Positions 3,165 through 21,252 are shown, counted from the stretch's first letter. The stretch: DNA of 64,000 nt from an uncultured bacterium (GCA_963844965.1 CAWJQC010000007.1:32001-96000), one strand, 5' to 3'. Translations and numbers: made by a program. The notes: generated by a model not told the origin, from the sequence alone.

Positions 3165-3201
3165 GTTGTTTTGTTTATTATACCGCTTATACGCAAAAAA
3201 A

Positions 3202-4221
3202 TCAAATGATTTTCTTTATCATTTCCAGCCGCACCCCGCGAGACCGAGAATGCTTCACGAGCCCCAAATACGAGATGAAAGAATCTTTATTGAAACCGTT
3301 ATCCAATTTTTGGAGCATTCTCCGTTTTGTTTTTGTGCGCAAAATGCGGTGATGCGGAAAACAAACAAATCCGAGAAAATCTACGCCCTGATGATATTTT
3401 CTTATGGAAACTTTTTTGGGGTGCAGCTCGAGTTTGAGGTTTGCGTTAAGAAAATCGCTGATTTTTTCGATGTAGCTCGACAGAAGTTCCTTGTCCCTGT
3501 CCAAAATCACGAAATCATCGCAATAGCGCATATAATATTTTGCCCGCAAGATCGTTTTTACGAATTGATCGAGCTCATTCATGTAGATATTCGCGAAGAG
3601 TTGGCTCGTAAGGTTGCCGAGCGGCAACCCCTTGCCAGCTTCTTTGCTGAAACTGTCGATAATTATTTGGAAAAGGCTGAGGGCGCGCGGATCTTGTATT
3701 CGCCGCGCAAGAAGATTCTTCAATATCCCGTGGTCAATGGAGTTGAAAAAACTTTTGATGTCGCACTTCAGGGCCCAAACTGTTTTCGTGTTGTTTTTGG
3801 ATAATTTCCAGCCAAATTTGTGCAAGCGCTCGAGCGCGGCGTGAGCCCCCTTCTCGTCCCGGCAAGCGTAAGAATCAAAAATGAAGCGCAGATCGAATAT
3901 CGGCTCGATCACCCTGACGATCGCGTGATGTAAAACCCGGTCGCGAACCGGTGCTTTGTGGATGTGTCTTTTCTTCGGATCGAACACAAAAAACGATTTA
4001 TACGCGCCATGTTGATATTTTCCGTCCTTTAGCGTATAATGCAGGCAGAAAAGGTTATCTTCAAGATTGCGGGAAAATTCCATCACTTCCAGCTTCCGCG
4101 ATTTACCTCGTAAAAACTCATACCATGCAAACAACAAATTATTAGATGAAATAATGTTTTCATACACAACATGACTATCCAAACCGTCCCCGATAGAATG
4201 TTGGACCTCCCTATTTTCCAT
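3202..4221 (-). CDS. Diversity-generating retroelement reverse transcriptase
   Basis: RT motifs: ENIISSNNLLFAWYEFLRGKSRK (motif 0/1), KKRHIHKAPVRDRVLHHAIVRVIEPIF (motif 2), KSFFNSIDH (motif A), LPLGNLTSQLFANIYMNELD (motif B with the DGR-specific GxxxSQ instead of SP), YCDDFVI (YxDD). The ORF track starts at alt-start 4278; the ATG at 4221 fits DGR RT N-termini better. Confidence 0.8.
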   Translation of the reverse strand: MENREVQHSIGDGLDSHVVYENIISSNNLLFAWYEFLRGKSRKLEVMEFSRNLEDNLFCLHYTLKDGKYQHGAYKSFFVFDPKKRHIHKAPVRDRVLHHAIVRVIEPIFDLRFIFDSYACRDEKGAHAALERLHKFGWKLSKNNTKTVWALKCDIKSFFNSIDHGILKNLLARRIQDPRALSLFQIIIDSFSKEAGKGLPLGNLTSQLFANIYMNELDQFVKTILRAKYYMRYCDDFVILDRDKELLSSYIEKISDFLNANLKLELHPKKVSIRKYHQGVDFLGFVCFPHHRILRTKTKRRMLQKLDNGFNKDSFISYLGLVKHSRSRGVRLEMIKKII

Positions 4222-4551
4222 AAAACATACGATTTTATTATTGTATTTTCCAATTACGTCGTTAAGTTTCCCAAACACGATCGCTTCACTCTCGGCGCGA
4301 GGATAGAAAACACCGCCGTCGAACTCTTAATGCTTATCATGCGGGCGAATTACGGGCAAGCCGTAGCGCGCGTCGGTTTTTTAAACGAAGGAAGTATCCT
4401 GCTCGATATGCTCAAGGTATTCGTGCGGCTCGCGAAGGATAAGAAAGCTATACACCCGAATCAGTATTTAATGCTCGAGGAACGGTTGCAGGAAATAGGC
4501 CGCATGCTCGGCGGTTGGATAAAGTCCTCAAGTGCAAAAAGACCCGTGTGA
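4198..4551 (+). CDS. avd: Avd-like accessory variability determinant (four-helix-bundle protein)
   Basis: ~118 aa. ..FPKHDRFTLGARIENTAVELL..FLNEGSILLDMLKVFVRLAKD..LQEIGRMLGGWIKS closely resembles Bordetella bAvd (..GRILGSWIA..) and the TIGR02436 four-helix-bundle family. Opposite strand to the RT, 5' ends overlapping by ~24 nt. Confidence 0.6.
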   Translation: MLDLPIFHKTYDFIIVFSNYVVKFPKHDRFTLGARIENTAVELLMLIMRANYGQAVARVGFLNEGSILLDMLKVFVRLAKDKKAIHPNQYLMLEERLQEIGRMLGGWIKSSSAKRPV

Positions 4552-4563
4552 GCGGGTCTTTTT
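4536..4563. terminator. Bidirectional hairpin terminator between avd and TR
   Basis: aaaaagacccg-tgtgag-cgggtcttttt perfect palindrome with A/T runs on both sides. Confidence 0.5.
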
Positions 4564-4575
4564 GTGAGATACGAT

Positions 4576-4681
4576 CTGAGGGCGGAACCCCAAGTTGTCG
4601 TTCCGTTCGGCAGGGTCATCCCAGTTCACGTTGGAGAGGCCACCGTTGTCTGAGTTGCCGCCATCGAGGCGCCTCGTGCCC
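4576..4681 (-). repeat. DGR template repeat (TR)
   Basis: Not in a full-length gene. In the sense (minus) orientation it encodes GTRRLDGGNSDNGGLSNVNWDDPAERNDNLGFRPQ, with AAC/GAC codons exactly where the three VRs differ. Every VR/TR mismatch I can see is at a TR adenine. Confidence 0.8.
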
Positions 4682-4920
4682 GGTCCCAAGCCCATCTGTG
4701 TCCCAAACCATCCAAGGCAGCGGCAATTCGCAGAAAGCGTCTTGCCTGTATAAATATGGAGCGGTATTCCTTTGTTTAAAGGAAATCCGCATAAGTTTGG
4801 AGCACGTCGTTTCTCTCGTTTGTTGGGCGAACCGACGATCCGTAGATCCGGCTACATTAGCCCGCATAAAAAATTTACACCGAAATGCCCAAAGGAGCAA
4901 CAGCCCAATCCCCAAAGTTC

Positions 4921-5799
4921 CTACTCACGAGAGAAAACAACCTGAGGGCGGAACCCCAAGTCGTCGTTCCGTCCGGCAGGGCCATCCCAGTCCACGTGGG
5001 AGAGGCCACCGCGGCCTGAGTGGCCGCCATCGAGGCGCCTCGCGCCCTTTTGGTAAGAGTCCTCGAACCATTCCCAGGTATTCGTCTCACCCCACTTGGG
5101 ATAATAAAGATTTCCCATATAGTTCCATTCAATAGCTCTTGGAAGTCTCAGGGATTCGGGCGGAACGTCGAGTGCCTCCGCGATGGCTTTTTTCACTTCC
5201 GGCTTGTTCAGCTCGTCCCAGGAGATATTATAGCGAGAGTTCTTGACTTTGAAATCCGTGATTATCTTTTTCTTTCTCAAATCCTCAAGTGTCTCTGCCA
5301 GTATGTCTTCGGCATATTTTTGTTTGCCGTCTTGATAGTTGGGCTTTTCGCGGCTGTCCACGAGAATCCACGAGGCAGGTAGTTTGAGGGTGTCTTTCGG
5401 AAGATTGCCGTTCTTTACCTCGTCAAAAAACTCGATACCCCAACTCTTATCCGGAGTGTATCGCGTGCCCGGCTTCTTTTTCCAACCAGGCAAATCGCGC
5501 TCTTCTGTTAGCTCTTCATCGGGCAAGTAATGAAGTTCAAGCCCCATTTCTTTCCACTTTTCGTATCGTTCTGGTGTGATTTCTTCCGGCAGCAGTGGAA
5601 CCTCAACGTCGTAGCCGAAGAATTCCCTGAGTTTCTCGGTTTCCTGCTCCATTAGTTCCCTGAACTCTGCCGAGGATTCGGGTGCTTTCCTTTTCTCCTT
5701 CTCCGCCTCGCCCAATGCTTTTTCCACCTTCTTTTGAACGGTGGTTTTGTACTGGTCGGGGTTATACTCTTCGTAGATTTTGTAACCGGGGAAGGGCAT
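4921..5799 (-). CDS. DGR target protein, paralog 2
   Basis: 292 aa; same architecture as 265..1137; C-terminal VR2. Confidence 0.7.
   Translation of the reverse strand: MPFPGYKIYEEYNPDQYKTTVQKKVEKALGEAEKEKRKAPESSAEFRELMEQETEKLREFFGYDVEVPLLPEEITPERYEKWKEMGLELHYLPDEELTEERDLPGWKKKPGTRYTPDKSWGIEFFDEVKNGNLPKDTLKLPASWILVDSREKPNYQDGKQKYAEDILAETLEDLRKKKIITDFKVKNSRYNISWDELNKPEVKKAIAEALDVPPESLRLPRAIEWNYMGNLYYPKWGETNTWEWFEDSYQKGARRLDGGHSGRGGLSHVDWDGPAGRNDDLGFRPQVVFSRE
4942..5047 (-). repeat. DGR variable region VR2
   Basis: Aligned to TR; substitutions only at TR adenines. Confidence 0.75.
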
Positions 5800-5888
5800 G
5801 GTGTCAAATGAATGGTCTTATTTGTTTATTGTTATAAAATTTTTTTTGAAAGCCTACCAAAGAAACAAGAGAACAATTGTCAAAGTTC

Positions 5889-6737
5889 CTACTCACGAGA
5901 GAAAACAACCTGAGGGCGGAACCCCAAGCTGCCGAGCCGCTCGGCAGGGTCATCCCAGTCCACGTGGGAGAGGCCACCGAGGCCTGAGCCGCCGCCATCG
6001 AGGCGCCTCGCGCCCTTTTGGTAAGAATCTTCAAACCATTCCCAGGTATTGGTATCGCCCCACTCGGGGTGATAGGCGTTGCCGATAACGTTCCATTCAA
6101 TCGCTCGCGGCAGGCGGAGACACTCTTCGGGCACGTCCATTGCCTCCGCTATGGCCTTTTTGACTTCGGGCTTATTCAGTTCGTCCCAGGAGATGTTGAA
6201 GCGGGAGCCTTTCGTCTCAAAGTCCGTAATAATCTTCTTTTTCCTCAAGTCCTCTAAGACGGGTCTGAGGACGTCGTCCTTATATATTTGCTTGCCGCTC
6301 TCGTACTTCGGCTTCCCGCGGGTGTCGACGAGAATCCAGGCGTCGGGGAGCTTAGCAGCATCGGCAGGGATTTCGTTCGCCTCTAAGCGGCCATAAAACC
6401 AATCTCCAGGTTTCTTTTTCCACCCCGGGAAAGCGGCATCCTTCCTCATCTCTTCCGGGGGAAGGTAGTGCAATTCAAAACCCATCTCTTTCCATTTTTC
6501 ATAACGCTCGGGGGTAACTTCATCGGGTAAGGGCGGGACTTCAACCTCATGACCGAAGAAAGTGCTGAGAGATTCTGTCTCGCGATCTACCAGTTCCCGG
6601 AATTCCGCTGATTCCGGCGTCATTCTCCCTTTCTCCTTCTCCGCCTCGCCCAGTGCTTTTTCCACCTTCTTCTGGACGGTGGTTTTGTACTGGTCGGGGT
6701 TGTACTCTTCATAGATTTTGTAGCCGGGGAAGGGCAT
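5889..6737 (-). CDS. DGR target protein, paralog 3
   Basis: 282 aa; same N-terminal and C-terminal architecture; middle segment divergent; C-terminal VR3. Confidence 0.7.
   Translation of the reverse strand: MPFPGYKIYEEYNPDQYKTTVQKKVEKALGEAEKEKGRMTPESAEFRELVDRETESLSTFFGHEVEVPPLPDEVTPERYEKWKEMGFELHYLPPEEMRKDAAFPGWKKKPGDWFYGRLEANEIPADAAKLPDAWILVDTRGKPKYESGKQIYKDDVLRPVLEDLRKKKIITDFETKGSRFNISWDELNKPEVKKAIAEAMDVPEECLRLPRAIEWNVIGNAYHPEWGDTNTWEWFEDSYQKGARRLDGGGSGLGGLSHVDWDDPAERLGSLGFRPQVVFSRE
5910..6015 (-). repeat. DGR variable region VR3
   Basis: Aligned to TR; substitutions only at TR adenines. Confidence 0.75.
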
Positions 6738-6742
6738 CGGAA

Positions 6743-8419
6743 TTATTCTTTACCTTGCCACGCACGTAGGGTCTTCGCCGCGAGTCCAGGCACCTTGAAA
6801 TCTTCCGGCTTGGTGTCTTTGAAGAATTTATTCGCCATAAAGACGCGGATCATGTTTTCCCTGTCTTTGCTCGCGCGTCCGCTGATTTCCGCCTTATGGA
6901 AGAACTCGCGGAGAACCACGTTTCCGAGCGGATCTTTGAAGCCGCCGGCCTTCCACGCCTTCATAATTTCAATCTGGTCCTTCAAGGTGATGACGAGTTC
7001 TCGAAACGCAAGGCGGTCGCTCTTTGACAAGCTTTCTTCCGCGCCCTCCCGCACCGAGAGCGTGAAATCTTCCTGAATTTTGCGGCAGGCGGCGGCAAAG
7101 CGCTTCAGCTCATCAACTTTTTGCCCTGCTTCCGCTTCGCTCCATTGAATGTTGCCGTGGCGGTCGGCGAGAACGGCGGTCAAAATCTGCAACGTTTCCG
7201 GAGCGATATACTGCCCTTCTTTATTTTTCTTGCCGAGGTCCAAGTAATGTATTTCCCGCGCCCCTGCGCCTCCGATGAAGCGGCGAAGGGTCGCGACGTC
7301 CAGCTCATAGCGCTGCTTATATCGTTCTGATTTCAAGTTTGCCGTTGCCATAATCGGCGCGCGGATCGGAATTTCTTCCCCGGTCACCGGATGCTTCCAT
7401 GCGTCGCCGACGCGTTTCTGAAGAAGATCGTGCAAGATCCCCGCGAATTCGTGGGGCATAAGGTTGACTTCGTCCAAGATCACCGGGCGTCCTTCTTTTT
7501 GCGCCTTTACGAATTCGGAATAGTCAAAAACCGTCTCGCCCCCTTTGAGCCCTCGGCTCCCTATGATTTGTGATTCTTTGATTTGTTCTTGAATGGGGAT
7601 TAGGGCTGGGTCTCTCCTTAAGTATCTTTCGGAAATATATTTTGCAAGCTGCGACTTTCCGGAACCGGTTTCGCCCTGGAAAAGAACCGGCGCACCCTGC
7701 ATCAAATCCGGAAGTATGGCTCGGATCAATTCCGTACGCGATTCCGTTTCGGCGAAGCTGTAACGTTCGAGGTCGCGCTGCATGCGTCTGATTCCTCGCC
7801 GCTCCAACATATCAATCGTTTCGGGGTCCAATTCAAACTTCTGTAATCTTTCTTGAAGCTCAATCTTCCGAGCCGCCATGTTCGCCAATTTCTTGCGTTC
7901 AATCGGACCGGGCGCTCGCCCCACTTTCTCGAAAAGCATCTGGAGCTTTTCTTCGGCAGAAGTTATTGCGCCAAGTTCTTTCTCCGCATGTTCGTATTCT
8001 AACGCTTTTGCGAGCGTCTGTTTTTGTCTTTCAAATTTTTCTTTGTAAGCACGCAGCACTTCTGGATTGCTTGCTAATTCTTTTATACGAGCGTCGTATT
8101 CGTGAAGCGTGGTTTCCTGAAATTCCGCTAATTCTGGATCGAGCGAAAGAGCCTCAAGATGTGCGGCCATTTCTTTTTCGCCTTTGGCTTTGAGATCGGC
8201 GAGTTCCGTTTTGCTTTTCACGCCCCAGGCCTCATTCACATGTTTTGCGACCTCCGCGCGAGAAGCCGAAAACTCGGCGAGTTCGCTGACTCGCGATTCT
8301 AATTCTTCAGGCGACAGGGTTTTTTCTTTTTTCCCGGATTTTTGCGCGCCCTCCTTCTCAAGAACGATTTCGGGGGTAGTTTTTACCTCGGGAACATGTG
8401 GTATTTTTTCTGGGGACAT
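6743..8419 (-). CDS. AAA+ ATPase (AAA_5/MoxR-like) with N-terminal coiled-coil region
   Basis: 558 aa. Walker A GETGSGKS, Walker B VILDEVNL, ATANL sensor-like segment, arginine finger region RRF. Confidence 0.7.
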   Translation of the reverse strand: MSPEKIPHVPEVKTTPEIVLEKEGAQKSGKKEKTLSPEELESRVSELAEFSASRAEVAKHVNEAWGVKSKTELADLKAKGEKEMAAHLEALSLDPELAEFQETTLHEYDARIKELASNPEVLRAYKEKFERQKQTLAKALEYEHAEKELGAITSAEEKLQMLFEKVGRAPGPIERKKLANMAARKIELQERLQKFELDPETIDMLERRGIRRMQRDLERYSFAETESRTELIRAILPDLMQGAPVLFQGETGSGKSQLAKYISERYLRRDPALIPIQEQIKESQIIGSRGLKGGETVFDYSEFVKAQKEGRPVILDEVNLMPHEFAGILHDLLQKRVGDAWKHPVTGEEIPIRAPIMATANLKSERYKQRYELDVATLRRFIGGAGAREIHYLDLGKKNKEGQYIAPETLQILTAVLADRHGNIQWSEAEAGQKVDELKRFAAACRKIQEDFTLSVREGAEESLSKSDRLAFRELVITLKDQIEIMKAWKAGGFKDPLGNVVLREFFHKAEISGRASKDRENMIRVFMANKFFKDTKPEDFKVPGLAAKTLRAWQGKE

Positions 8420-8860
8420 ATTATTGCAATTATAGTAGCAAGGCCTTTATTTCTCAAGACTTTCGATTGTTTCCATGATACCATAATAATATAACTGCGT
8501 CAAGTCGCGCGTTTTCGTTCCCGAACGACCCCTGCTCTATCCTCAAAAACCTTGTCAGGGTCTAACTACGAAGGCCCCTTCGCAAGTCCTCTGATCTAAG
8601 TTAGGGTGGATGCAAAGGTCGAAAAATCGTATAATCTCATTAACAACTGAATAACCTCAAAGGCAGAGCCGTAACCCTCGCGAAAAATCGTGCGGCATGG
8701 CTCGAAATCCGTCCTCGGTAGAAAGCTCCTAGTCAGAGCACCGGGGACGGTCATATCTCGAAAGGGGTGTGGGTCCCGCAAGGGATCGCTGGCTGGGAGC
8801 TTTTTATTTCGGTCGATCTCTCGCTGGCACATTAGTAAATAATTAACAAAAAATAAAAAT

Positions 8861-9421
8861 ATGGAAGAGCAAACAAAGAAATGCAGGGAGTGCAAGTCGG
8901 ACATTCCGGCTGGCGCCAAGCGATGTCCCAGCTGCCGAGCGGATCAAAGGAACTGGTTGATGCGCCATAAAGCCTTAACTGTCGTGGTGATATTTATAGC
9001 GCTCATTATCATAGCCATGGTTGCTGGTAGTAATAGCAATAACCCTAAACAGGTCGGCAATAACAGCCAGCCAGTCCCATCATCCCAAGAGCAGACGTTC
9101 AAGGTCGGCGATCACGTCCAGATGGGAAGCGATATCATAACGGTGAACAGCGCGGAGTTTTCGAGCGGTACAGAATTCGCAAAGCCAGCCGCTGGGAACA
9201 CCTGGTTAGACGTCAATCTGACGATACAAAACACGGACAACGCCCAGCAGTATATAACGACCATGGGACAGATGTTTGTTAAGGATTCCGACGGCAACAG
9301 TTACAACGTTTCGCCCACGGACAAAGAATTACAAAATCCATCGCTTGGCATGGACGGCCCGATTCTTGCCAACAGCAAAAAGACCGCTTGGGTAGGGTTT
9401 GTAAAGGATAGGTTTCTTTAG
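8861..9421 (+). CDS. Zinc-ribbon / single-TM / DUF4352-like extracellular domain protein, 3' end running into the IS3 terminus
   Basis: N-terminal CxxC..CxxC, TM helix, then a beta-rich domain. The last codons (..VKDRFL*) are encoded by the IS terminal repeat, so the native C-terminus is probably lost. Confidence 0.55.
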   Translation: MEEQTKKCRECKSDIPAGAKRCPSCRADQRNWLMRHKALTVVVIFIALIIIAMVAGSNSNNPKQVGNNSQPVPSSQEQTFKVGDHVQMGSDIITVNSAEFSSGTEFAKPAAGNTWLDVNLTIQNTDNAQQYITTMGQMFVKDSDGNSYNVSPTDKELQNPSLGMDGPILANSKKTAWVGFVKDRFL

Positions 9422-9456
9422 ACAGTGATTCGACGGCTTTTTGCCGTTTTTTTTCG

Positions 9457-10239
9457 TTAAGCCGCAATCTTCTCGGCAAACACGGACGGCGGCATCTTGA
9501 GGGCGGAGTGGATCCGCGTGTGGTTGTACTGCCACAAGGTGCTGTAGATCTCCGCCACGAGCTCGCCGAAGGTCCCGAACCGGTTGGGATCACCGAGGTC
9601 AATCTTGAACTTGTCATAGAACGATTCCTGGTAGCCGTTTTCCCATGGGGCACCGGGCCGCGACCGCGAGATCGTGATGCCACAGTCCCCCAGTGTATCG
9701 GTGAACGCTCGTGCCTTGTACTCGCTGCCGTTGTCCGAATGGAAGATGACCGGATGCGGATGGTGGAAAAGCGCGTTGGCCAGGGTCTGTATCGTGAGGG
9801 GCGATCCTTTCCGCAACGCCACATGGACGCCCATCAATCGTCTCGTGAAAAGATCGAGTATCGTGGACACGTACACTTTCTTGCCGCGATACAGGAACTC
9901 CGTGAAATCGGTTGCCCAGACGTGGTTCGCGTACGAGGGCATGATGGCAAGTAAGAGGTTCGGAAAGGCCCGCGATGCCTTTGATTTCCGGTATTTCCTG
10001 CCTCGCCTCCGGTACGGCCTTATGCCGAAGATTCGCATGACGCGCTGCGCTCGCGGACGGCTCACGCCCAGAGCTTGTCCCAAGCGCCGGGAACCGTATG
10101 CCGGATGGCGCTGCAATTCTTCTTCCATGCGGATCTTGAGCGCCCAATCTTTCTTGTCCTGCCGTGATACGTAGTAGAGCGATGCCCGCGAGACGCCCAT
10201 GGCCCGCGCCATGGCGGACTTGTTCCGCTTTTCCGTCAA
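9457..10239 (-). CDS. IS3-family transposase OrfB (DDE integrase core)
   Basis: 260 aa; ..WATDFTEF..HSDNGSEY..YNHTRIHSAL.. rve-type DDE motifs. Confidence 0.85.
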   Translation of the reverse strand: MTEKRNKSAMARAMGVSRASLYYVSRQDKKDWALKIRMEEELQRHPAYGSRRLGQALGVSRPRAQRVMRIFGIRPYRRRGRKYRKSKASRAFPNLLLAIMPSYANHVWATDFTEFLYRGKKVYVSTILDLFTRRLMGVHVALRKGSPLTIQTLANALFHHPHPVIFHSDNGSEYKARAFTDTLGDCGITISRSRPGAPWENGYQESFYDKFKIDLGDPNRFGTFGELVAEIYSTLWQYNHTRIHSALKMPPSVFAEKIAA

Positions 10240-10499
10240 TTCTTTTTTTGGGCCTGGGAGAGCTTCACGGTGAGCTCGCCCACCACTTCAAACAGCTCCC
10301 TGTTCTGCTTCTGGAGACGGCTGAACTCGCCCCAGGAAGGGACGCCCGATGCTCCTGCGCCTAGCCAATTGTAGATGGTGGACTCGTGCAAACCGTGGTC
10401 CTTCGCAGCCTGCGCTACGGGGACTCCTTCTTCCTTCACCCGGCGGAGGATGTCCGCCTTCACTTCCTTCGCAATCCGATGCCCTTTTTTGTTGCTCAT
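10236..10499 (-). CDS. IS3-family transposase OrfA (HTH)
   Basis: 87 aa; helix-turn-helix; ends QAQKKN* at the frameshift heptamer. Confidence 0.85.
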   Translation of the reverse strand: MSNKKGHRIAKEVKADILRRVKEEGVPVAQAAKDHGLHESTIYNWLGAGASGVPSWGEFSRLQKQNRELFEVVGELTVKLSQAQKKN

Positions 10500-10531
10500 G
10501 ACACAATGGTAGTTTGTTTCGACCTTTGTGT

Positions 10532-11794
10532 CTAAATTATCCTATCCGGGTCAATGGTTAAGTCGCAGAATGCCGGTTCCAATTCGACCGTATAGACCCG
10601 GCGCTTAAGTTGTTCACCTGCAATCAGCGTGCTGCCGCTGCCGCAAAAGCTGTCCAAGATAATGTCTCCCGGACGGCTGCACCTGCGGATCGCTTTTTCA
10701 TGGAGCGCTGGCGGCTTGGACGTAGCGTGCTGATATTCGTTGCCCGCGAGTCGCTTCACGAGCCAGATGTCAAGCAAATCCAGGATGTCGTCAATGAGCC
10801 TGTTGCCCGTGGAGAGTTCCTTGTTCTGGATCTCGTTGAGCGACTGGAGGCCCTTCGCGAGATACGGCTTGCCGCGGACGCCGTAGACGGCGGGTTCATA
10901 GCACTTCGAGAAAGCGACCTCGGGAGTGGGGTTCTGGCCGTTTTTAATCCAGAGGCAGACGCGCTTGTTTTCAAGGCCGAGTTCCGCGTAGAGTGTCTGC
11001 AGGAGCCAGATATAACGCTGGTCGCACCAATAAAAGACATGCATATCGTCTTTCGCGACGGCGAGGGCGTTTACGAGGCTCTTCCGGAGAAACTCTTTGT
11101 ACTCGTCGTCAGTCCGCGTGTCGTTGACGCTACCGCCGTAGTTGGCATGTCCGCCGACGCCCTTCGCATAATCCACGCCGCCCTTCAGGTTATAGACCGG
11201 ATCGGAATAAATGACGGATGCCTTCTCGCCGCCAAAAAGCTTTTTGAGGACGGCGGGGTCTGTTGAATCGCCGCAAGCTAATTTATGAGGGCCTAGCGAG
11301 AATATGTCGCCGAGCTTTGTTTTCGGTTTTTTGATCTTGGCGAGCTCGCGTTCGACATTGAACTCATCGTCCTGAACTTCCGCGATGTCGTCCCAGAGGT
11401 GCGACAGCTCTTCGTCTTTAAATCCGATTTCAAGCAATAGCTCGGTGTCGAAGGTGCGTAATAGCTCGTATGACCAGTCTCCGCGCACGGCATTTGAGGT
11501 GAGCAAGTATTGCTCAAACTCGTGTTTCGTCAATTTCCGGTTCGGCACGCGCACTTCTATTTCTTCGCTCCCTCGGCCAAGGAGCTGAAGGGCCTTCAAC
11601 CTTTGATGACCAGCTATGATCGTGCCGTCCGTGTCGATCGCGGGAAGTTCTACGACGTTGAATTTCGTCAGGCTCTTCTTAAGGGCCTCGAGCTGAGCCT
11701 CGCCGATGGTGCGGGGATTTTTGGAAAACGGGACGAGTGAGTTAATCGCTCTCTTCTCCGTGTGCCAGATTAGCGATATGTGTTTTCTAGCCAT
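10532..11794 (-). CDS. ParB-like nuclease domain fused to an N6-adenine/N4-cytosine DNA methyltransferase (beta-class, PF01555-like)
   Basis: 420 aa. N-terminal ParB/Srx-like region (..IIAGHQRLKA..). MTase motif IV variant SDPVYN. C-terminal motif I ILDSFCGSGSTLIAGEQLKRRVYTVELEP. The last 8 codons are encoded by the IS IRL. Confidence 0.7.
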   Translation of the reverse strand: MARKHISLIWHTEKRAINSLVPFSKNPRTIGEAQLEALKKSLTKFNVVELPAIDTDGTIIAGHQRLKALQLLGRGSEEIEVRVPNRKLTKHEFEQYLLTSNAVRGDWSYELLRTFDTELLLEIGFKDEELSHLWDDIAEVQDDEFNVERELAKIKKPKTKLGDIFSLGPHKLACGDSTDPAVLKKLFGGEKASVIYSDPVYNLKGGVDYAKGVGGHANYGGSVNDTRTDDEYKEFLRKSLVNALAVAKDDMHVFYWCDQRYIWLLQTLYAELGLENKRVCLWIKNGQNPTPEVAFSKCYEPAVYGVRGKPYLAKGLQSLNEIQNKELSTGNRLIDDILDLLDIWLVKRLAGNEYQHATSKPPALHEKAIRRCSRPGDIILDSFCGSGSTLIAGEQLKRRVYTVELEPAFCDLTIDPDRII

Positions 11795-12054
11795 TGTTGA
11801 TAATTTTTAATTTGTTCGACGACATAACGACTGCATTCCCACCCGACCGATTTTTCCTCTGACCATTCACGAAGGGTTGACAACGTGACATCAGTCGAGA
11901 TCGCAAACGCTTTTATCTGCTCCGGCGTCGCGTCGCGTACGGCGGCCCGCCAGTGGATGAATGCCGAGCGTCGCGCCAGTTCGTCGTATTTTCCGCGCCG
12001 GATGACGATCGGTTCCCGTGCCGTCGGCACTTTTTCGGGGCTTAGATATTGCAT
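11770..12054 (-). CDS. Hypothetical protein
   Basis: 94 aa; co-oriented, between the 309-aa ORF and the ParB-MTase; no motif recognised. Confidence 0.4.
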   Translation of the reverse strand: MQYLSPEKVPTAREPIVIRRGKYDELARRSAFIHWRAAVRDATPEQIKAFAISTDVTLSTLREWSEEKSVGWECSRYVVEQIKNYQQWLENTYR

Positions 12055-12168
12055 ATAAATGTAAATTTATTTTTCGACTCTTTGCCTCATGAAAAATTTG
12101 AGGCATGACCGTTCGGTCATACCTCTATCGAAGCACAAGCTCCTGTGGATATTCGGGAAAAAAGTAGA

Positions 12169-13098
12169 CTACTCTTTCCCGAAGCGCTTATCCCTCAATT
12201 CCTGCAGCAACCGGGCCGCCTCGGCGATTCGCTTGCCATCAGGCTTCCCTTTGATAAGTTTTTGCTCTATGGCGGTCTTGGCGAGTTCGTCGAGGGTGGT
12301 GTGGTAATACGCGCCGCGCTCGTTATTCTCGGCGTGATCCCAATGGTCGCGGTCTCCCATGACCCACTGCTCAATGGTCAATTTGTTATCGATGTCTTTA
12401 ATGGGATTAAACTTAGCGAGGCGGCGCTTGCCCCAGTAGGTGAGATAGCGTTTAAGTTCCTCGAAGTCTTCGTCGGTAAGTTGAGCATATACGTTTACGG
12501 GCACATACCGCATATCTTTCGATCGCGCGCCCGGCGGCCATGCGCCACCCTGAAAACTGCTCATGGGGGCGTTAATACTCCCGTTCAAAATATATTGCTG
12601 AATAAACCAGCCGAAGTGTTCCGGCGCGTTGAATCGTGCCGCGATATAGCGTGGCATTTCATGGAGATAATAGCTTGGGTTTTTGAAGTTCAGCATCTTC
12701 CGGCGTAGTTTCGCAGCATCGAAATCTTTCTGCGCTTTTTCTCGGTCTTGTGCAGTGGCGTTTTTGTCTCGCGATAACTCATAACAGACCTTCCGGCACT
12801 TCTCGATTTCGGCGTTTGCGTCGCGCTCGCTTTTCTGGAATTCGAGGGAATCCAAGACTGCTTCGGAGCGTTCCAGAAGGCAGTCGCCCCATCCAACGTG
12901 TCGCTTGTCATTTTTATCAGTGGGGATATCGAGAAATTCCCGCGCTTCCGCGACGAACTCTTGGAACGGCTTGTGGGAAATGAGCAGCTTCATCATGTCG
13001 AGATTCTTCCTGTGGGATGGAAATTTGCCGTTCAGCCATCCCGTCGCCATTCTCTTGGCCGGAGACTTTTTCTTTGTTTTACGTTTCGCTTTGGGCAT
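12169..13098 (-). CDS. Hypothetical protein (basic N-terminus)
   Basis: 309 aa; MPKAKRKTKKKSPAKR.. N-terminus; no recognised domain. Confidence 0.5.
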   Translation of the reverse strand: MPKAKRKTKKKSPAKRMATGWLNGKFPSHRKNLDMMKLLISHKPFQEFVAEAREFLDIPTDKNDKRHVGWGDCLLERSEAVLDSLEFQKSERDANAEIEKCRKVCYELSRDKNATAQDREKAQKDFDAAKLRRKMLNFKNPSYYLHEMPRYIAARFNAPEHFGWFIQQYILNGSINAPMSSFQGGAWPPGARSKDMRYVPVNVYAQLTDEDFEELKRYLTYWGKRRLAKFNPIKDIDNKLTIEQWVMGDRDHWDHAENNERGAYYHTTLDELAKTAIEQKLIKGKPDGKRIAEAARLLQELRDKRFGKE

Positions 13099-13147
13099 TG
13101 TAAGCTAATGGTAATTCCCTAGTTTTGGAAAAGCAATTTACCTCATT

Positions 13148-13795
13148 ATGGATAAAGAAAAGCAAGAACAAGAAATTGAAGAGACTGCGTCGACAAATCA
13201 ATCCAAGAAGCCACGCAAATTAAAAGCGCGTTTACTGCGCCTTTATTACCTCGCCGTTTGGAACAGTACCCTCCGCAAAGATCGCTGCGTACAGTGGTTT
13301 CGGCGATATGCGCACGCCCTACGCGAAATTTTTATCTTAATAGTCACGATCGTTGCGGCTTGGTCTATCACGCAATTCATCGACATTTCTTCAATTTCGA
13401 CGAATAACTTGGCGAGTTGTTTTGTCGCGGTTGGTGCGATGATCGGTGGCGTCATAGCCATCGTGTTTTCGCTCTCGATTTTTGCCCAGCAAAGCAGCGC
13501 CGATCTTTATTCATCCCAGTATTTCGAGGTGTATGCCCACGATTGGAAAGAGAAGATGACGTATTCGTTAATTGTGCTCATAACGATTGCGTTCTTCGTC
13601 GGCGGAATCATTTTTTACGGCAACGCGAACTTGGCCACGGTCTATAAGTATGTCGGTGTGTATGCATCGCTGATCTTAATAGGAACCGTCTTCATTTTGG
13701 TCGATTGGCAGTACCGAAACGTAACGTCGAAGGCTAATCCCATTAAAGCGCTCAACTTTCTCGAAAGGCAATCTGACCCGGATAGGATAATTTAG
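13148..13795 (+). CDS. Membrane protein, C-terminus running into the IS terminus (probably truncated)
   Basis: 215 aa; several hydrophobic helices; the last codons ..DPDRII* are encoded by the IS IRL. Confidence 0.45.
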   Translation: MDKEKQEQEIEETASTNQSKKPRKLKARLLRLYYLAVWNSTLRKDRCVQWFRRYAHALREIFILIVTIVAAWSITQFIDISSISTNNLASCFVAVGAMIGGVIAIVFSLSIFAQQSSADLYSSQYFEVYAHDWKEKMTYSLIVLITIAFFVGGIIFYGNANLATVYKYVGVYASLILIGTVFILVDWQYRNVTSKANPIKALNFLERQSDPDRII

Positions 13796-13827
13796 ACACA
13801 AAGGTCGAAACAAACTACCATTGTGTC

Positions 13828-14091
13828 ATGAGCAACAAAAAAGGGCATCGGATTGCGAAGGAAGTGAAGGCGGACATCCTCCGCCGGGTGAAGGAAGAAG
13901 GAGTCCCCGTAGCGCAGGCTGCGAAGGACCACGGTTTGCACGAGTCCACCATCTACAATTGGCTAGGCGCAGGAGCATCGGGCGTCCCTTCCTGGGGCGA
14001 GTTCAGCCGTCTCCAGAAGCAGAACAGGGAGCTGTTTGAAGTGGTGGGCGAGCTCACCGTGAAGCTCTCCCAGGCCCAAAAAAAGAATTGA
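13828..14091 (+). CDS. IS3 transposase OrfA
   Basis: Identical to the other copies. Confidence 0.85.
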   Translation: MSNKKGHRIAKEVKADILRRVKEEGVPVAQAAKDHGLHESTIYNWLGAGASGVPSWGEFSRLQKQNRELFEVVGELTVKLSQAQKKN

Positions 14092-14870
14092 CGGAAAAGC
14101 GGAACAAGTCCGCCATGGCGCGGGCCATGGGCGTCTCGCGGGCATCGCTCTACTACGTATCACGGCAGGACAAGAAAGATTGGGCGCTCAAGATCCGCAT
14201 GGAAGAAGAATTGCAGCGCCATCCGGCATACGGTTCCCGGCGCTTGGGACAAGCTCTGGGCGTGAGCCGTCCGCGAGCGCAGCGCGTCATGCGAATCTTC
14301 GGCATAAGGCCGTACCGGAGGCGAGGCAGGAAATACCGGAAATCAAAGGCATCGCGGGCCTTTCCGAACCTCTTACTTGCCATCATGCCCTCGTACGCGA
14401 ACCACGTCTGGGCAACCGATTTCACGGAGTTCCTGTATCGCGGCAAGAAAGTGTACGTGTCCACGATACTCGATCTTTTCACGAGACGATTGATGGGCGT
14501 CCATGTGGCGTTGCGGAAAGGATCGCCCCTCACGATACAGACCCTGGCCAACGCGCTTTTCCACCATCCGCATCCGGTCATCTTCCATTCGGACAACGGC
14601 AGCGAGTACAAGGCACGAGCGTTCACCGATACACTGGGGGACTGTGGCATCACGATCTCGCGGTCGCGGCCCGGTGCCCCATGGGAAAACGGCTACCAGG
14701 AATCGTTCTATGACAAGTTCAAGATTGACCTCGGTGATCCCAACCGGTTCGGGACCTTCGGCGAGCTCGTGGCGGAGATCTACAGCACCTTGTGGCAGTA
14801 CAACCACACGCGGATCCACTCCGCCCTCAAGATGCCGCCGTCCGTGTTTGCCGAGAAGATTGCGGCTTAA
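14088..14870 (+). CDS. IS3 transposase OrfB
   Basis: Identical to the other copies; -1 frame relative to orfA. Confidence 0.85.
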   Translation: MTEKRNKSAMARAMGVSRASLYYVSRQDKKDWALKIRMEEELQRHPAYGSRRLGQALGVSRPRAQRVMRIFGIRPYRRRGRKYRKSKASRAFPNLLLAIMPSYANHVWATDFTEFLYRGKKVYVSTILDLFTRRLMGVHVALRKGSPLTIQTLANALFHHPHPVIFHSDNGSEYKARAFTDTLGDCGITISRSRPGAPWENGYQESFYDKFKIDLGDPNRFGTFGELVAEIYSTLWQYNHTRIHSALKMPPSVFAEKIAA

Positions 14871-14929
14871 CGAAAAAAAACGGCAAAAAGCCGTCGAATC
14901 ACTGTCTAAAGAAACCTATCCTTTACAGG

Positions 14930-15675
14930 GCACGGAATATGGCGAAGGCGGTCATCTTGTCATCCCGACGCTTTCATCGCGGCCGCACCATCATCCACGC
15001 GAACTCGACCGAGCGGTCATTGGCCGCATCCTTGCACTTCGCAGCGAACGGGACCAATGCGCGGAGATCGTCCATCACCGGCTAGAAGAGGAAAAGATTG
15101 CCGTTAGCCTTTCGTCCGTGAAGCGTACACTCAAACGCCACGGTATCACGCGATATTCAAAATGGAAGAAGTGGCACCAGTATCTTCCGCGTCCCATGCC
15201 CACAAAGCCAGGCATATTGGTTGAGATCGATTCAATGCAAGAAGGTATTGCCATGGACCACCTCCATGCGTACGCCTTGATCGACGTATGTTCCCGTTGG
15301 GCGTGGGCATGGCCAGCCGCCCAGGTCTCAAGCCGCTTAAGCGCACGGTTCGTCCAGCAAGCGCAAGCGGCAGCTCCGTTTCCTTTCGTCACAATCCAAT
15401 CCGACCGTGGCGGGGAGTTTTCAAAATGGTTTACCAAGGTCATCGAGCATCAGGGATTTTCACATCGCCACTCGCGCGTACGGACGCCAACAGATAACAG
15501 CCATGTGGAACGGTTCATCCAAACGCTTCAGCGGGACTGTTTACGACGTATCCCTAACACTCTTGCCGCGTGGCGCAAGGAGATTCCCGATTTTCTTCAC
15601 TACTACAATACCGAACGGCCGCACATGGGACTTGATATGAAAACGCCCGTCGAGTGGTTAGAAGCTATTGATTAG
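14930..15675 (+). pseudogene. IS481-like DDE transposase (integrase core), 5' end disrupted or ambiguous
   Basis: ..HTH-like RELDRAVIGRILALRSE.., then DSMQEG..DHLHAYALIDV.., QSDRGGEF.., HYYNTERPHMGLDMKTP. No in-frame ATG after the IS3 right end; the only ATG (14939) is in another frame that closes at 15085. Confidence 0.5.
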
Positions 15676-15691
15676 AAAGCATCACCGCGGG

Positions 15692-16129
15692 CTAAAGCCC
15701 GCGGCTTGTGTTCGGCTCCTGTTCCCACTGGTTTCTGATATATTCTCTCATCGCTTTTTCGTTTTGACGGCCAACGGTTTCGGCAAAGTAACCATCCTGC
15801 CACAAGCTGTCTCCCCAGAGGAATTCTTCCAGCTCGGGAAATTCTTTTCTGACAGCCCTGGACGTACCGCCTTTGAGATAAAACACCGCTTTGGCAACCG
15901 TCAGGGTAGCAGGAATTTGAAGCAATAGATGGACATGGTCGGGCATTATCTGCGCTTCATGGATGAACCATTTATTCATCTTGGCGGCTTGAAAGAACAA
16001 TGTCTTGAGTCGCCCGACCATGTCCCCTCGCAGTATCGAGCGGCGGTACTTTGGGCAGAAAACAACGTGGTACAAACATCGCGTATAGCTGTGGTTGCTT
16101 GGCCAGAATCCAGAGGGCATTATCTTCAT
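15692..16129 (-). CDS. tnpA: IS200/IS605-family Y1 transposase TnpA
   Basis: 145 aa; HVHLLL (HuH), Y..IRNQ; the palindrome ccgcgggctaaagcccgcgg overlaps the 3' end. Confidence 0.8.
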   Translation of the reverse strand: MKIMPSGFWPSNHSYTRCLYHVVFCPKYRRSILRGDMVGRLKTLFFQAAKMNKWFIHEAQIMPDHVHLLLQIPATLTVAKAVFYLKGGTSRAVRKEFPELEEFLWGDSLWQDGYFAETVGRQNEKAMREYIRNQWEQEPNTSRGL

Positions 16130-16581
16130 TATCGCACCGGCAGAAACCAGTGGGAACAGGCAAATAAGCCCTCCGCCCCTCGCTTCGCTCGGGGCTACGG
16201 GGTCGCCTTATCCTCGGCCTAAAGGCCGGGGCTTGCGGCGGAGCGGGTCAAATGAGAAACCTCCCACATGCCTCTTTTTTGCCCCAAATGCCCCAAATGA
16301 TCACCGACCGCGGTGCTTCAGGAGCTGGCAAAGCATCTCAAAATGCTTTATATTTCCGTCATAGCCCCGCGACCAGGGTGCTTCGGAAAGGAGTGGAAGG
16401 GTAATCATCAAAATCCCTCAATAACCTTGTGAAACCTCGCTAGGAATACACCCTTAAAAGTTCGACACCGCACGGGGGGCAGGCAGGCCTCCAAGGCGCA
16501 CACCATCGTGGCTCTTGCTTCTGGCTCTGCGGGGGTTTAAGCTATTCGTAGTCCTATTTTTATTTTTACACGGAGACATGA

Positions 16582-17235
16582 TTGCTGAAAGATCCAAGGA
16601 TTCTGAGGCCGGCTCCTCCGAGCGTTTTGATTTGGGACATTGGCGGAGTGCTTATAAGGTATAGAAATCTTTGGGAAGATGGTGAGTTTGTGGGCAACTG
16701 TGCCTGCGGAGTTGCCGAGATAGAGAGGTTCTTTACCAGCTACCCATTTTTTCTCTGCGAGGAGAGTAAAATAAGCGACGCGGAATTATTCGGATTGGTC
16801 AAAGAACAACTTGGGTACAAGTTCGATCTTGGAAAGTTCGCTGTTGATTTCTGCGAATGCTGCCGTTTTGAGTTGGACAGGGAAGTATTCAAACTTTTCT
16901 TGTATATAAAGGTGAAATATGCCGACGTGACGACGCTGTGGGCGCTGAGTAACGTGAATAAAATCCATTATGATTACTTTCGGAAGCTATATCCCGGGCT
17001 CTATGCTAATTTTTCCGAACTTTTTCTGTCTTTCGAAATGGGAGCGAGAAAGCCAGATTTGGCAATCTATGAGAGAATGTGCGGGATGGGCGGAGTTAGT
17101 TATTCCGACTGCCTGCTTATTGATGATAACCCGGAAAACGGCGTTGCGCCGAAGCAACTCGGCATGGGGTTCGTACATTTTGAAAATTCTAGACGGTTGA
17201 GGTTGGCGCTTGCGGTTCGCGGCATCGTGATTTAA
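16582..17235 (+). CDS. HAD-superfamily hydrolase
   Basis: DIGGVL (motif I), ..SN.. , K, DD motif near the C-terminus. Confidence 0.65.
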   Translation: MLKDPRILRPAPPSVLIWDIGGVLIRYRNLWEDGEFVGNCACGVAEIERFFTSYPFFLCEESKISDAELFGLVKEQLGYKFDLGKFAVDFCECCRFELDREVFKLFLYIKVKYADVTTLWALSNVNKIHYDYFRKLYPGLYANFSELFLSFEMGARKPDLAIYERMCGMGGVSYSDCLLIDDNPENGVAPKQLGMGFVHFENSRRLRLALAVRGIVI

Positions 17236-17554
17236 TCCCCCCCAGTCGTTCTTCGGCGGGGGATTTTGATTTTTATCATTGCTTTGGTATTATTTGATTT
17301 GTGCGGAACGCCGATTCTGCCTTCGTTCTGAATTTTTGGGTGTGTAGTTCAGTGGCACCCCGTAGCAAAATTTGGGCACATAGTTCAGCTTGCCCCGCCA
17401 AATTTTACCAGTTAGTAAAATTTGGCGGGGTGAAGTAGAACGTCCCGATATTTGCAAAATTTTCAATTTTGCTAAAATATCGAGGATCCGCGATTTTGCT
17501 TTTCTGTCGCACCGAAAGCAAAATCGGGACTGTCCTGACCCCGCACCAAATTAT

Positions 17555-17626
17555 GCGCGTGTAGCTCAGTGGTAGAGCACAGTCCTGATAAGACTGGGGT
17601 CGATGGTTCAATTCCATCCACGCGCA
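17555..17626 (+). tRNA. tRNA-Ile (anticodon GAU)
   Basis: Full cloverleaf: acceptor gcgcgtg/cacgcgc, D arm gctc-agtggta-gagc, anticodon arm cagtc-ctGATaa-gactg, T arm gatgg-ttcaatt-ccatc, discriminator A; CCA not encoded. Confidence 0.85.
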
Positions 17627-18566: not shown

Positions 18567-20177
18567 ATGTCTGATACGCCCGGTTTCATAGGGGGAGCTA
18601 TGCGCAAGGGTCTTCTTGTTGCCCTATTGGCCTTCATTGTGCTCGCCGGTCTGACCATCTCGATCGGCTTGTATTATTATCGATTTATAAATCAGCAGCT
18701 TACTTTGAGCGTTTACAATCACCGGCTGGTTGTCGCGAGCCTGACCGCATCCGGAATCAAGTTGAAATTGGACCATCTTGAGGGGATCGCGATATCTTTC
18801 GCGGCGCAGGACGACATGCGCGCAGAAATTATTGGCGGCAGATGGGAAGACGCCATGGCTAAGGCCGAGGACCTCTCCAACAGCCCAGATTTTTATGATT
18901 ACTACATAGACAGAACCTTATTGGTGGACGCCTCGGGAGCCATAAGAGCTGCCTATCCGCTCCTTAGCGGAACCATGGGTTTGCCCAAGTCAAATTTTAA
19001 GGAGTGGAGCGTTCCCCTTGAGAACGGGCAGGCCGCGTATGTTTCCGATGTCTATGAAAGGTCCGTCTCCCCGCGGATTAATGTCGTTGACGTCGTCGCG
19101 CCGGTTGCGGCGCACTCCGTTATTTACGGCTTCGTCGTTCTGCAGGTGCCCATCAATGAATTTTCCGATTTCGGCCAGGATACCGACATCAGCTCCAACG
19201 GTTTTGCCTACATAGTTGACAGGAAGGGTCAGATTGTATATCACCCGAAATATTCTTCCGTCGGTCCCATTGTTGACTATTCGGAGGTGCCGGCTGTGCA
19301 AAAATTGCTCAGCGGCGAAACCGGAATCGGAATTTTATCCAATCCGATTGAGAGAACGGAGAGAGTGTCGGCTTACGAATTGGTGCCGACATACGGGTGG
19401 GGCGTTGTGTCCGTGGAGCCGACCGCGGACGCGTTTGAGGCGCGGAATAGCATTTTGCACCAGATTTTGCTGGCCATTTCGGTTTTATGCGCATCAGAGC
19501 TTTTCCTGGCGATTTTCATTTTTTGGCTGGTTACGAGGTCCGAGAGAAGCAAACCGAACGCGGGATACGCGAGACAATTTCCGAAGACGCCGCCGAGGGC
19601 CAGCGGAGGGTTCACGCTGATAGAACTTTTGGTCGTTATCGCCATTATCGCCGTTTTGTCCATAGTCGTCATCCTGACCCTTAATCCGACGGAACTTCTG
19701 CGCCAGGCGAGGGATTCCGACAGGATTTCGGATCTCTCCATAATAAAGAGCGCCATTTCTATTTATTTGGTAGACCTGCGCAATCCGATTATCGCTTCCT
19801 CTACGGAATACTGCTACGAATCGGTCTTGGCAGCGAACGTCACCACTACCTACAGCACTTGGTTTCCCTCAATCCCACTCGGCAATGCGACTACTTCTCC
19901 GCAAGCTACCTACAGAAATATTGACGGCACGGGCTGGATTCATGTGAACTTTACCCAAATCAGCGCCGGCACGCCCTTCGGCCAGCTTCCGATCGACCCC
20001 TTGAATAACGCACAGTATATGTATATGTATGTAGGCAGTTCCACGCAGTCCACATTCAAACTCGCTACGGATATGGAAAGTTCAAAGTACGGCAATGGCG
20101 GAGCAGCGGACGTTGAGTCAAAAGACGGCGGCACTGACCCGAATAAATACGAAGCCGGAAGCAATCTCAATTTGTAG
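18567..20177 (+). CDS. dCache-like sensor domain (two TM helices) fused in frame to a type IV pilin/pseudopilin module
   Basis: N-terminal TM, ~300-aa periplasmic domain with Cache-like YVSDVY..GFVVLQVP..IVDRKGQIVYHP, second TM, then GGFTLIELLVVIAIIAVLS prepilin class-III signal, then a pilin body homologous to the two downstream pilins. Confidence 0.6.
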   Translation: MSDTPGFIGGAMRKGLLVALLAFIVLAGLTISIGLYYYRFINQQLTLSVYNHRLVVASLTASGIKLKLDHLEGIAISFAAQDDMRAEIIGGRWEDAMAKAEDLSNSPDFYDYYIDRTLLVDASGAIRAAYPLLSGTMGLPKSNFKEWSVPLENGQAAYVSDVYERSVSPRINVVDVVAPVAAHSVIYGFVVLQVPINEFSDFGQDTDISSNGFAYIVDRKGQIVYHPKYSSVGPIVDYSEVPAVQKLLSGETGIGILSNPIERTERVSAYELVPTYGWGVVSVEPTADAFEARNSILHQILLAISVLCASELFLAIFIFWLVTRSERSKPNAGYARQFPKTPPRASGGFTLIELLVVIAIIAVLSIVVILTLNPTELLRQARDSDRISDLSIIKSAISIYLVDLRNPIIASSTEYCYESVLAANVTTTYSTWFPSIPLGNATTSPQATYRNIDGTGWIHVNFTQISAGTPFGQLPIDPLNNAQYMYMYVGSSTQSTFKLATDMESSKYGNGGAADVESKDGGTDPNKYEAGSNLNL

Positions 20178-20290
20178 ATATATTTGCAAATGTGTCTTCG
20201 CGCGCTACTTCCCGCACCTCCTCAGGACGGGTTTTCGGTTATCCACAGAGGCGGTTATGAAGACGTGAGCGGTTTGTTACAATTAAGATT

Positions 20291-20330
20291 GTTGGTATTA
20301 GCAAAACGAAAAAGGTCGATTTGACGCGAT
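20291..20330 (+). promoter_or_regulatory. Conserved upstream element of pilin paralogs (copy 1)
   Basis: gttggtatta.c.aaac.a.aaaggtcgatttgacgcgat, repeated at 21205-21244 at the same distance from the start codon. Confidence 0.35.
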
Positions 20331-20348
20331 GTTTAGTGTGAAATAAAC

Positions 20349-20954: not shown

Positions 20955-20996
20955 CGTCTGCGGACGGCAAGCCAGTCCGATTCTTGGCTTAAGAAC

Positions 20997-21028
20997 GTGA
21001 GCGCTCCGACCAAAGTCGGAGCGCTCAC
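20997..21028. terminator. Hairpin terminator after the pilin gene
   Basis: gtgagcgctccgac-caaa-gtcggagcgctcac followed by a T-rich stretch. Confidence 0.5.
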
Positions 21029-21204
21029 GTTTCTGCGTTGCCAGAACATCGTTCCGACCGCGGAAATATGCGGCGGCTCGGTTTCTGAGGCCGGCTCCAT
21101 CTTTGCTTTCGTTGATTTGCGCGAGCGGTATGGCCATAAATTGGGCTTTTGGGTTATCCACAGAGCATTCTGCGGATAAGGGGGAGATTTGCTATAATGT
21201 ATTT

Positions 21205-21244
21205 GTTGGTATTAACCAAACAAGAAAGGTCGATTTGACGCGAT
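21205..21244 (+). promoter_or_regulatory. Conserved upstream element of pilin paralogs (copy 2)
   Basis: See 20291-20330. Confidence 0.35.
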
Positions 21245-21252
21245 ATTCACAC

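Follow-up and report, generated by a model that had tools for sequence, protein, structure and literature searches.

In Tn10 and Tn5, two inverted copies of one insertion sequence (IS), IS10 and IS50, respectively, stand around a few kb of other genes. Compound transposition is uncommon for the IS families which move by copy-out-paste-in. IS-driven erosion of the genome is known from Burkholderia mallei, where many identical copies of IS407A, most of them without target-site duplications (TSDs), are located at synteny breaks and deletion edges. In the long-term evolution experiment (LTEE) with Escherichia coli, 14 of the 68 events of IS150, a member of the IS3 family, were deletions; all of them followed a prior insertion, none carried a TSD, and they ranged from base pairs to tens of kb, often extending stepwise (PMC11708052). 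The locus analysed here lies in a 64,000-nucleotide stretch of DNA from an uncultured bacterium (GCA_963844965.1, CAWJQC010000007.1:32001-96000; the window hereafter, with positions counted from its first letter). Two identical IS3-family elements of 1154 bp stand there in inverted orientation at the ends of the region 9400-14927 and enclose a segment of about 3.2 kb, an arrangement which had been called composite-transposon-like in a preliminary description. An inverted IS pair alone does not make a composite transposon. This pair, and a second one in the same window, are probably by-products of IS proliferation in decaying islands combined with adjacent deletion or recombination between IS copies, and not a transposon that carries cargo.

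Copy 1 (9400-10553, minus strand) has its right inverted-repeat end (IRR) at 9400 and its left end (IRL) at 10553, whereas copy 2 (13774-14927, plus strand) begins with its IRL at 13774. In the repeat search the two copies were detected as the single inverted pair of the region, 100% complementary over 1154 nt and spaced by 3220 nt; the chance origin of a perfect repeat of this length is impossible. In both copies the inner end lies 55 nt from the start of orfA, and the enclosed segment is thus faced by the IRL ends. The identity, orientation, family and inward IRL ends of the two copies were thereby found as first described. Copies 3 (54588-55741, minus strand) and 4 (58634-59787, plus strand) are identical to the other two and form a second inverted pair, again with the IRL ends inward and at a distance of 2892 bp. 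The 64 kb thus contain at least four copies, all 100% identical.

Each arm of the first pair carries an orfA of 87 aa with the HTH_Tnp_1 domain (10236-10499 in copy 1, 13828-14091 in copy 2) and, in the -1 frame, an orfB of 260 aa with the rve and rve_3 domains (9457-10239 and 14088-14870, respectively). The two reading frames overlap at 14088-14091 in copy 2, and a slippery heptamer, A AAA AAG, at 14079-14085 in the zero frame of orfA predicts a -1 frameshift. In the NCBIfam profile search, OrfB reached 189.8 bits with NF033516 'IS3 family transposase' (cutoff 160), and the DD(35)E triad was read from the translation in WATDF, HSDNGSEY and, 35 residues further, the E of YQESF. The element begins with TG, ends with CA and has imperfect terminal inverted repeats (TGACCCGGATAGG... 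/ ...CCTATCCTTTACA); these termini are conserved across the relatives, the flanking DNA is not. The two overlapping open reading frames (ORFs), the frameshift signal, the match to the curated model with its DD(35)E triad and the TG...CA ends place the element in the IS3 family, whose expected TSD was missing. In the protein search the relatives of the element were abundant, but the nearest IS3-family transposases on sequenced plasmids were only ~32% identical; the element is a divergent and autonomous IS3-family IS. Stop codons were read in all three inward frames within 22 nt of both IS ends, and truncated host ORFs consequently gain the short tails DPDRII*, VTRIG* and KDRFL*. If the tip of the IRR (TTTACA) and the IRL (GATAAT / ATAATT) were abutted, they would be predicted to form a promoter, as in circle junctions.

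A TSD of 3-5 bp was present in none of the four copies of the window, which held for the inner junctions, the outer junctions and all 16 combinations of left and right flanks. Offsets of 0-6 nt and reverse-complement duplications were also checked at the IS flanks and gave nothing above chance; a weak excess at the 3-nt offset (3 of 20 copies) failed the correction for 49 cells. The lack of matching TSDs, stated before for the inner and outer junctions of the first pair, extends accordingly to all cross-combinations of the flanks. As no combination yields a TSD, their lack is not accounted for by simple inversion or by exchange among these copies.

Reading frames that run into the IS had been described for all four junctions of the first pair. 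Three of them were recovered: the methyltransferase gene and a 215-aa ORF of the enclosed segment both end with ..DPDRII* in an IRL, and a DUF4352 gene on the left ends with ..KDRFL* in the IRR of copy 1. No ORF of at least 50 aa, however, reads into copy 2 from its outer side, and the junction ORF detected there (14503-15675, plus strand) is an off-frame reading of the IS which continues into a 5'-truncated IS481-like transposase gene. The proposal that the copies had inserted into pre-existing genes is correct in that the junction genes are disrupted, but copies 1 and 2 are not simple insertions, given the truncated terminal genes, the unrelated and truncated outer flanks and the absent TSDs. 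A clean insertion is seen at no junction of the pair; each of the four is a deletion or rearrangement scar.

The enclosed segment contains four ORFs, not the three (a ParB-methyltransferase and two unknowns) listed previously as mobile or phage cargo. They are indeed genes of mobile elements, and the methyltransferase matches phage families. This gene, with a ParB-like N-terminal domain and an N6/N4 DNA methyltransferase domain, occupies 10554-11794 on the minus strand, comprises 413 native aa and runs 22 nt into the IRL of copy 1; compared with the natural C-termini in protein P0122 and at the related locus L020, it lacks the last 8-20 aa. The neighbouring ORF of 94 aa (11770-12054, minus strand) has a weak similarity (45% over 42 aa) to a 98-aa gene upstream of the methyltransferase at another related locus, L029. 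It is followed by an ORF of 309 aa (12169-13098, minus strand), whose start, with the sequence preceding it (13057-13125), shares 83% identity over 70 nt with the divergent-promoter region of L029. The ORF of 215 aa (13148-13795, plus strand) corresponds to the N-terminal ~208 aa of an uncharacterised family of ~760-830-aa membrane proteins and is cut by the IRL of copy 2; the remaining ~600 codons of the gene were absent elsewhere in the 64-kb window. No match was found in Pfam, NCBIfam or PHROG for the 94-aa, 309-aa and 215-aa ORFs or for the ~800-aa relatives of the last.

The preliminary description had advised a comparison with related contigs which carry the cargo with or without the IS, and the nearest relatives, L029 and L020, were found in terminase islands without an IS pair. 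At L029, on an 888-kb contig, two small genes and the divergent promoter region stand before the methyltransferase homologue (84% aa identity), and a second methylase, the terminase large subunit and more genes come after it, all of them between two serine recombinase genes. At L020 the homologue is followed by the small and large terminase genes. Internally, the enclosed 3.2 kb is collinear with the middle of the prophage-like island of these relatives; the window retains only the promoter-proximal part, and nothing downstream of the methyltransferase is left. The junction-bearing methyltransferase protein (P0121) was found on one contig only in the database searches, and the exact IRL-end searches gave no second copy of the unit, although the collections may simply not hold one.

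The outer left flank of the pair is formed by the zinc-ribbon/DUF4352 gene (8861-9421, plus strand), which reads into the IRR of copy 1; its domain match does not go beyond position 100 of the 122 in the profile, and the gene is therefore probably 3'-truncated. The outer right flank is the 5'-truncated IS481-like transposase gene (14928-15675, plus strand), which covers positions 37-282 of the 284-position NF033577 and points away from the IS. This remnant is followed by an IS200-type Y1 transposase gene (15692-16129, minus strand), which completes a small cluster of IS remnants at 14928-16129 beside copy 2. A LOOT RNA motif (Rfam RF03000, 83 bits, gathering score 46.4) was detected at 8667-8787 on the plus strand, just upstream of the DUF4352 gene.

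The second pair could be compared with an IS-free related island, L027 (GCA_030689595.1), at 85% nt identity. The gene order of L027 is a helix-turn-helix (HTH) gene, the Mod methylase of 820 aa, Res of 976 aa and a large serine recombinase of 524 aa. Positions 55773-58631 of the window align with 9820-12678 of L027, and 59787-59871 with 14343-14428, on the same strand. Copy 4 is situated exactly at a collinear gap of 1664 bp, and the last 83 codons of Res and codons 1-471 of the recombinase are gone. At the other end, copy 3 and a solo IRL fragment (IS nt 1-32; 55742-55773, minus strand) stand in place of Mod codons 1-760 and all DNA to the left; the fragment abuts the IRL of copy 3 in the same orientation, and its other side lies at methylase codon ~761. 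What remains of the restriction-modification island between the copies (55774-58633, plus strand) comprises the last ~60 codons of the 820-aa methylase and codons 1-893 of the ~976-aa ResIII helicase/restriction gene, which ends with ..VTRIG* in the IRL of copy 4. Among the matches listed, the full-coverage Res homologues (93% to 69% identity) were 971-1000 aa long, compared with the 893 native aa here. The second pair encloses a dead fragment of a restriction-modification island.

Beyond copy 4, a 3'-end remnant of the large serine recombinase (59788-59871, plus strand) corresponds to aa 472-503 of the 524 in L027, with 97.7% nt identity, and overlaps the 3' end of tRNA-Asn (59859-59935, minus strand) by 13 nt. 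This overlap probably marks the attachment site of the island. At copy 4, the absence of a TSD is accordingly accompanied by flanks which are collinear but non-adjacent in an IS-free relative, whereas copies 1 and 2 show truncations alone. The earlier suggestion of rearrangement after insertion, or of recombination between copies, fits the truncations, the absent TSDs and the gap at copy 4. A 63-nt intergenic direct repeat (86% identity) was also observed at 51968-52030 and 54485-54547, the second of which stops 40 nt short of copy 3 on its outer side.

From these comparisons we infer the following order of events. One IS would have multiplied recently in the chromosome, with dispensable, horizontally acquired DNA as the landing site of all copies: copies 1 and 2 would have landed in a prophage-like island with the ParB-methyltransferase, and copies 3 and 4 in a restriction-modification island beside tRNA-Asn. 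The DNA adjoining each copy would then have been lost, by transposase-driven adjacent deletion or, after a second nearby insertion, by homologous recombination of copies in direct orientation; the TSD disappears in both cases. At the left end of the second pair, an older IS copy would have stood at methylase codon ~761, and copy 3 would have landed inside it before the rest of the older copy and the leftward island were lost. The segment 10554-13773 would be the surviving central piece of its island, made up of a divergent promoter, an operon of three genes which breaks off in the final codons of the methyltransferase and the first quarter of an ~800-aa gene. The adjacent-deletion step fits the established behaviour of the IS3 family in the LTEE (PMC11708052). 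At present, the 1154-bp inverted repeats likely allow RecA-dependent flipping of the enclosed segment as well as further deletions.

Relatives of the element with 74-77% nt identity were detected by the exact IRL-end search in many metagenome contigs from groundwater, peat and soil; the search was seeded with the IRL end, and isolated IRR fragments would be missed by it. In viral contigs neither IS end was present. A TSD was present in 0 of 7 full-length metagenome copies with both flanks. A relative with 80% identity was found in nine identical copies of 1159 bp, of which an 805-kb contig carried seven and two other contigs (59 and 133 kb) the remaining two, and a 3-bp match was present at one of the nine. 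A single copy on an 899-kb contig had no TSD. Together with the four copies of the window, a 3-bp match was found in 1 of 21 full-length copies of the clade, compared with ~0.3 expected by chance in a calculation covering 20 of the 21. Judging from their 'contig_N' names, the contigs with the nine identical copies may be of long-read origin. The only clear TSD of the clade, a 4-bp AATC direct repeat, flanks a 75-bp miniature element which consists of IRL and IRR only (L003, 806-880), and indicates that the transposase may still make a normal staggered cut. The autonomous copies may simply be prone to secondary deletions.

The contig with most copies, contig_38233 (ERZ25039512, 804,691 nt; L041/L042, L045), carries at least seven identical copies of the 80%-identical relative, among them an inverted pair with the IRL ends inward at a distance of 3938 bp and a direct pair 1371 bp apart, and the copies are far more clustered than random placement predicts. 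Older remnants of the same family were located on the IRL side of a full copy in four of four cases. The IRL-inward geometry and the IRL-side remnants are suggestive, not significant. Related copies were also found between unrelated truncated genes, for example at L008, L041 and L045.

Elsewhere in the metagenomes, the related IS repeatedly abuts truncated genes of mobile elements (L008, L009, L020, L006, L019, L022). These are a Dam-like methylase, a ParB-methyltransferase cut mid-gene, a terminase large subunit, a retroelement-type reverse transcriptase and large serine recombinases, with the gene identities at L008, L019 and L022 read by eye from the translations. The IS clade seems to live mostly in accessory DNA. 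At L031/L032 (ANAN16 scaffold_176), an MmeI-like type IIG restriction-modification gene has a copy of a related IS on either side, the two in direct orientation; L035, from another sample, joins the left flank of one of these copies to the right flank of the other, a junction which would result from an excised circle or a tandem duplication of the IS-plus-gene unit. A solo 34-nt IRL, 100% identical to the IS end of the window, was found without an adjacent transposase at 7725-7758 of L002, in a metagenome-assembled genome of Acidobacteriota (CAVYPU010000024.1), hence in a different phylum; it may have been left behind by horizontal spread or may stem from a chimera made in binning or assembly. 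Two further proposals were rejected. A preference for insertion in co-orientation downstream of host genes did not hold among the independent relatives (8 co-oriented vs 10 opposed), and L050 was not a clean insertion into one gene, as its two flanking ORFs do not join in frame.

The explanation by IS proliferation in decaying islands with loss of the adjoining DNA has several points against it. The junctions are known from the assembled contig. L027, as well as L029 and L020, is a relative and not an ancestor. The DNA loss on the outer sides of the first pair is suggested by the truncated genes, with no close IS-free relative which has the exact ancestral flanks. Furthermore, 20 of the 21 copies lack a TSD and nine of the copies are identical, hence recent, and separate deletions would mean many events in a short time; the transposition reaction of the clade itself may be unusual. 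The clade could, as a rule, insert with loss of neighbouring DNA instead of target duplication, possibly outward from one end, in which case IRL-inward pairs 3-4 kb apart would be protected leftovers between two outward-deleting copies. The match in only 1 of the 21 copies with nine of them identical, the IRL-inward orientation of three of three inverted pairs and the four of four remnants on the IRL side are consistent with such a mode. It is weakened by the normal 4-bp TSD of the miniature element, and also by palindrome or tandem-repeat collapse and ordinary adjacent deletion, which can account for these patterns; we regard this mode of insertion as unlikely. A polar deletion from the IRR end, prompted by the four nested remnants on the IRL side, was kept as a low-probability reading, since such remnants also arise, without any polarity, when tandem or palindromic IS-in-IS structures collapse.

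Four 100% identical repeats of 1.15 kb are hard to assemble, and the orientation of a segment is indeterminable when the inverted repeats around it exceed the read or insert length, so the repeats could have been mis-joined or the segment placed in an arbitrary orientation, with the junctions not standing together in one molecule. The TSDs missing everywhere and the many short-read contigs of related ISs which break at IS ends agree with such an artefact. Still, one contig of 331,718 nt spans all four copies, and the DNA on the two sides of copy 4 is collinear and belongs to a single island, an order that would not come from a random mis-join. No TSD was restored when the flanks were exchanged among the four copies, and TSDs are likewise rare in the nine identical related copies on contigs of 59-805 kb, so that an artefact is quite unlikely. 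In the case of one-step intramolecular transposition, by duplicative inversion or by the attack of an IS dimer junction on a site ~3 kb away, the second copy would have been made and the DNA between flipped in the same event. The TSD pattern predicted for it, in which the left flank of one copy matches the right flank of the other, as a reverse-complement TSD between an inner and an outer flank, was absent in all three inverted pairs of the clade (two in the window, one on contig_38233), even though all three are IRL-inward with 2.9-3.9 kb between the copies, which cluster far beyond random placement. Compared with L027, the segment of the second pair is collinear with its right outer flank and not inverted, and the copy-out-paste-in movement of the IS3 family via circles, as outlined in PMC3299598, yields no duplicative inversion; this origin is considered highly unlikely. 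As to a functional composite transposon, its outer IRR ends would have been used together, and a 5.5-kb unit would have moved in with the methyltransferase operon as cargo. The two identical inverted copies bracket the segment as in Tn10 and Tn5 and the outer ends do form a correctly inverted IRR pair, but the outer junctions (gtt|IS...IS|ggg) have no TSD, and the outer flanks are two different truncated genes and not one joined site. The two terminal genes of the cargo are truncated, the closest relatives of the cargo are without the IS pair, and the twin pair holds only a broken restriction gene, the methylase of which is lost. The direct-repeat unit of L031/L032 with the L035 junction, known from other metagenomes, indicates that IS-flanked units of the clade can be rearranged as blocks; for the unit described here, the junction-bearing protein was on one contig only, and no second genomic context was found. 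A composite transposon is thus extremely improbable, and the composite-transposon-like reading of the preliminary description is not supported.

The window is chromosomal: it contains genes for the histidyl-tRNA synthetase (HisRS), FtsZ, a PilB-type ATPase, pilin-like proteins, a class II ribonucleotide reductase and a pseudouridine synthase, as well as two tRNAs. The named homologues of the island genes were mostly from Parcubacteria/Patescibacteria bins, and the host is probably a small-genome member of the Patescibacteria. In NCBI/ENA, the proteins encoded by the window were traced to one contig, that of 331,718 nt. A contig of 1.3 kb from the Logan collection (run ERR10755942) is 100% identical to positions 16303-17601. 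The cumulative GC skew falls to ~16 kb and rises steadily thereafter; the change of sign (~8000-16000) coincides with the first IS pair and may correspond to a replication landmark or to the edge of an old inversion.

Two other repeat-bearing regions were observed in the window. A diversity-generating retroelement occupies 1-6750, with the reverse transcriptase gene at 3202-4278 (minus strand), the Avd gene at 4171-4551 (plus strand; NF033474, 88.6 bits) and a probable template repeat at ~4571-4681. Its three paralogous target genes (265-1137, 4921-5799 and 5889-6737, all on the minus strand) have 111-nt C-terminal repeats which are 88-93% identical (281-391, 4937-5047 and 5905-6015, respectively). 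Upstream of the PilB-type ATPase gene (22128-23843), the stretch 19579-21745 consists of paralogous units of ~0.8-0.9 kb, three in tandem (repeat families D3, D7 and D10), which overlap ORFs with pilin-type N_methyl motifs.

As found, the locus matters little: it is a clear case of ISs breaking up prophage-like and restriction-modification islands in the small genome of an uncultivated bacterium. If insertion coupled to deletion were true, a widespread clade, found in groundwater and soil metagenomes and in Patescibacteria-like genomes, would be an active eroder of such islands. The locus would matter more if the near-total lack of TSDs were a property of the clade's transposition reaction: it would then be an exception within a well-studied transposase family and a directly testable mechanism of genome streamlining in Patescibacteria.

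The element resembles the IS150, IS911, IS2 and IS407 groups in its orfA with an HTH domain and orfB with an rve DD(35)E domain in 0/-1 frames, in the A AAA AAG heptamer and in the imperfect repeats with TG..CA ends. It differs from the IS3 family at large by its length, as 1154 bp is at the small end of the family, by the ~32% identity of its transposase to the nearest plasmid-borne members and by the absence of the expected 3-5-bp TSD in 20 of 21 clade copies. Unlike Tn10 and Tn5, the unit is without a TSD and without intact selectable cargo, its outer flanks are non-contiguous, and no second context is known. The IS407A-driven erosion in B. mallei is similar in its many identical copies, mostly without TSDs, at deletion edges and synteny breaks, but the host here appears to have a small, Patescibacteria-like genome, and the eroded DNA consists of prophage-like and restriction-modification islands. 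In the LTEE, 54 of the 68 IS150 events were clean insertions with TSDs, whereas almost none are found here, and the events here are inferred by comparison instead of being observed over time. The IS150 deletions of that experiment nevertheless correspond to the present locus in having an IS3-family element at the deletion edge, no TSD and one original junction kept (PMC11708052).

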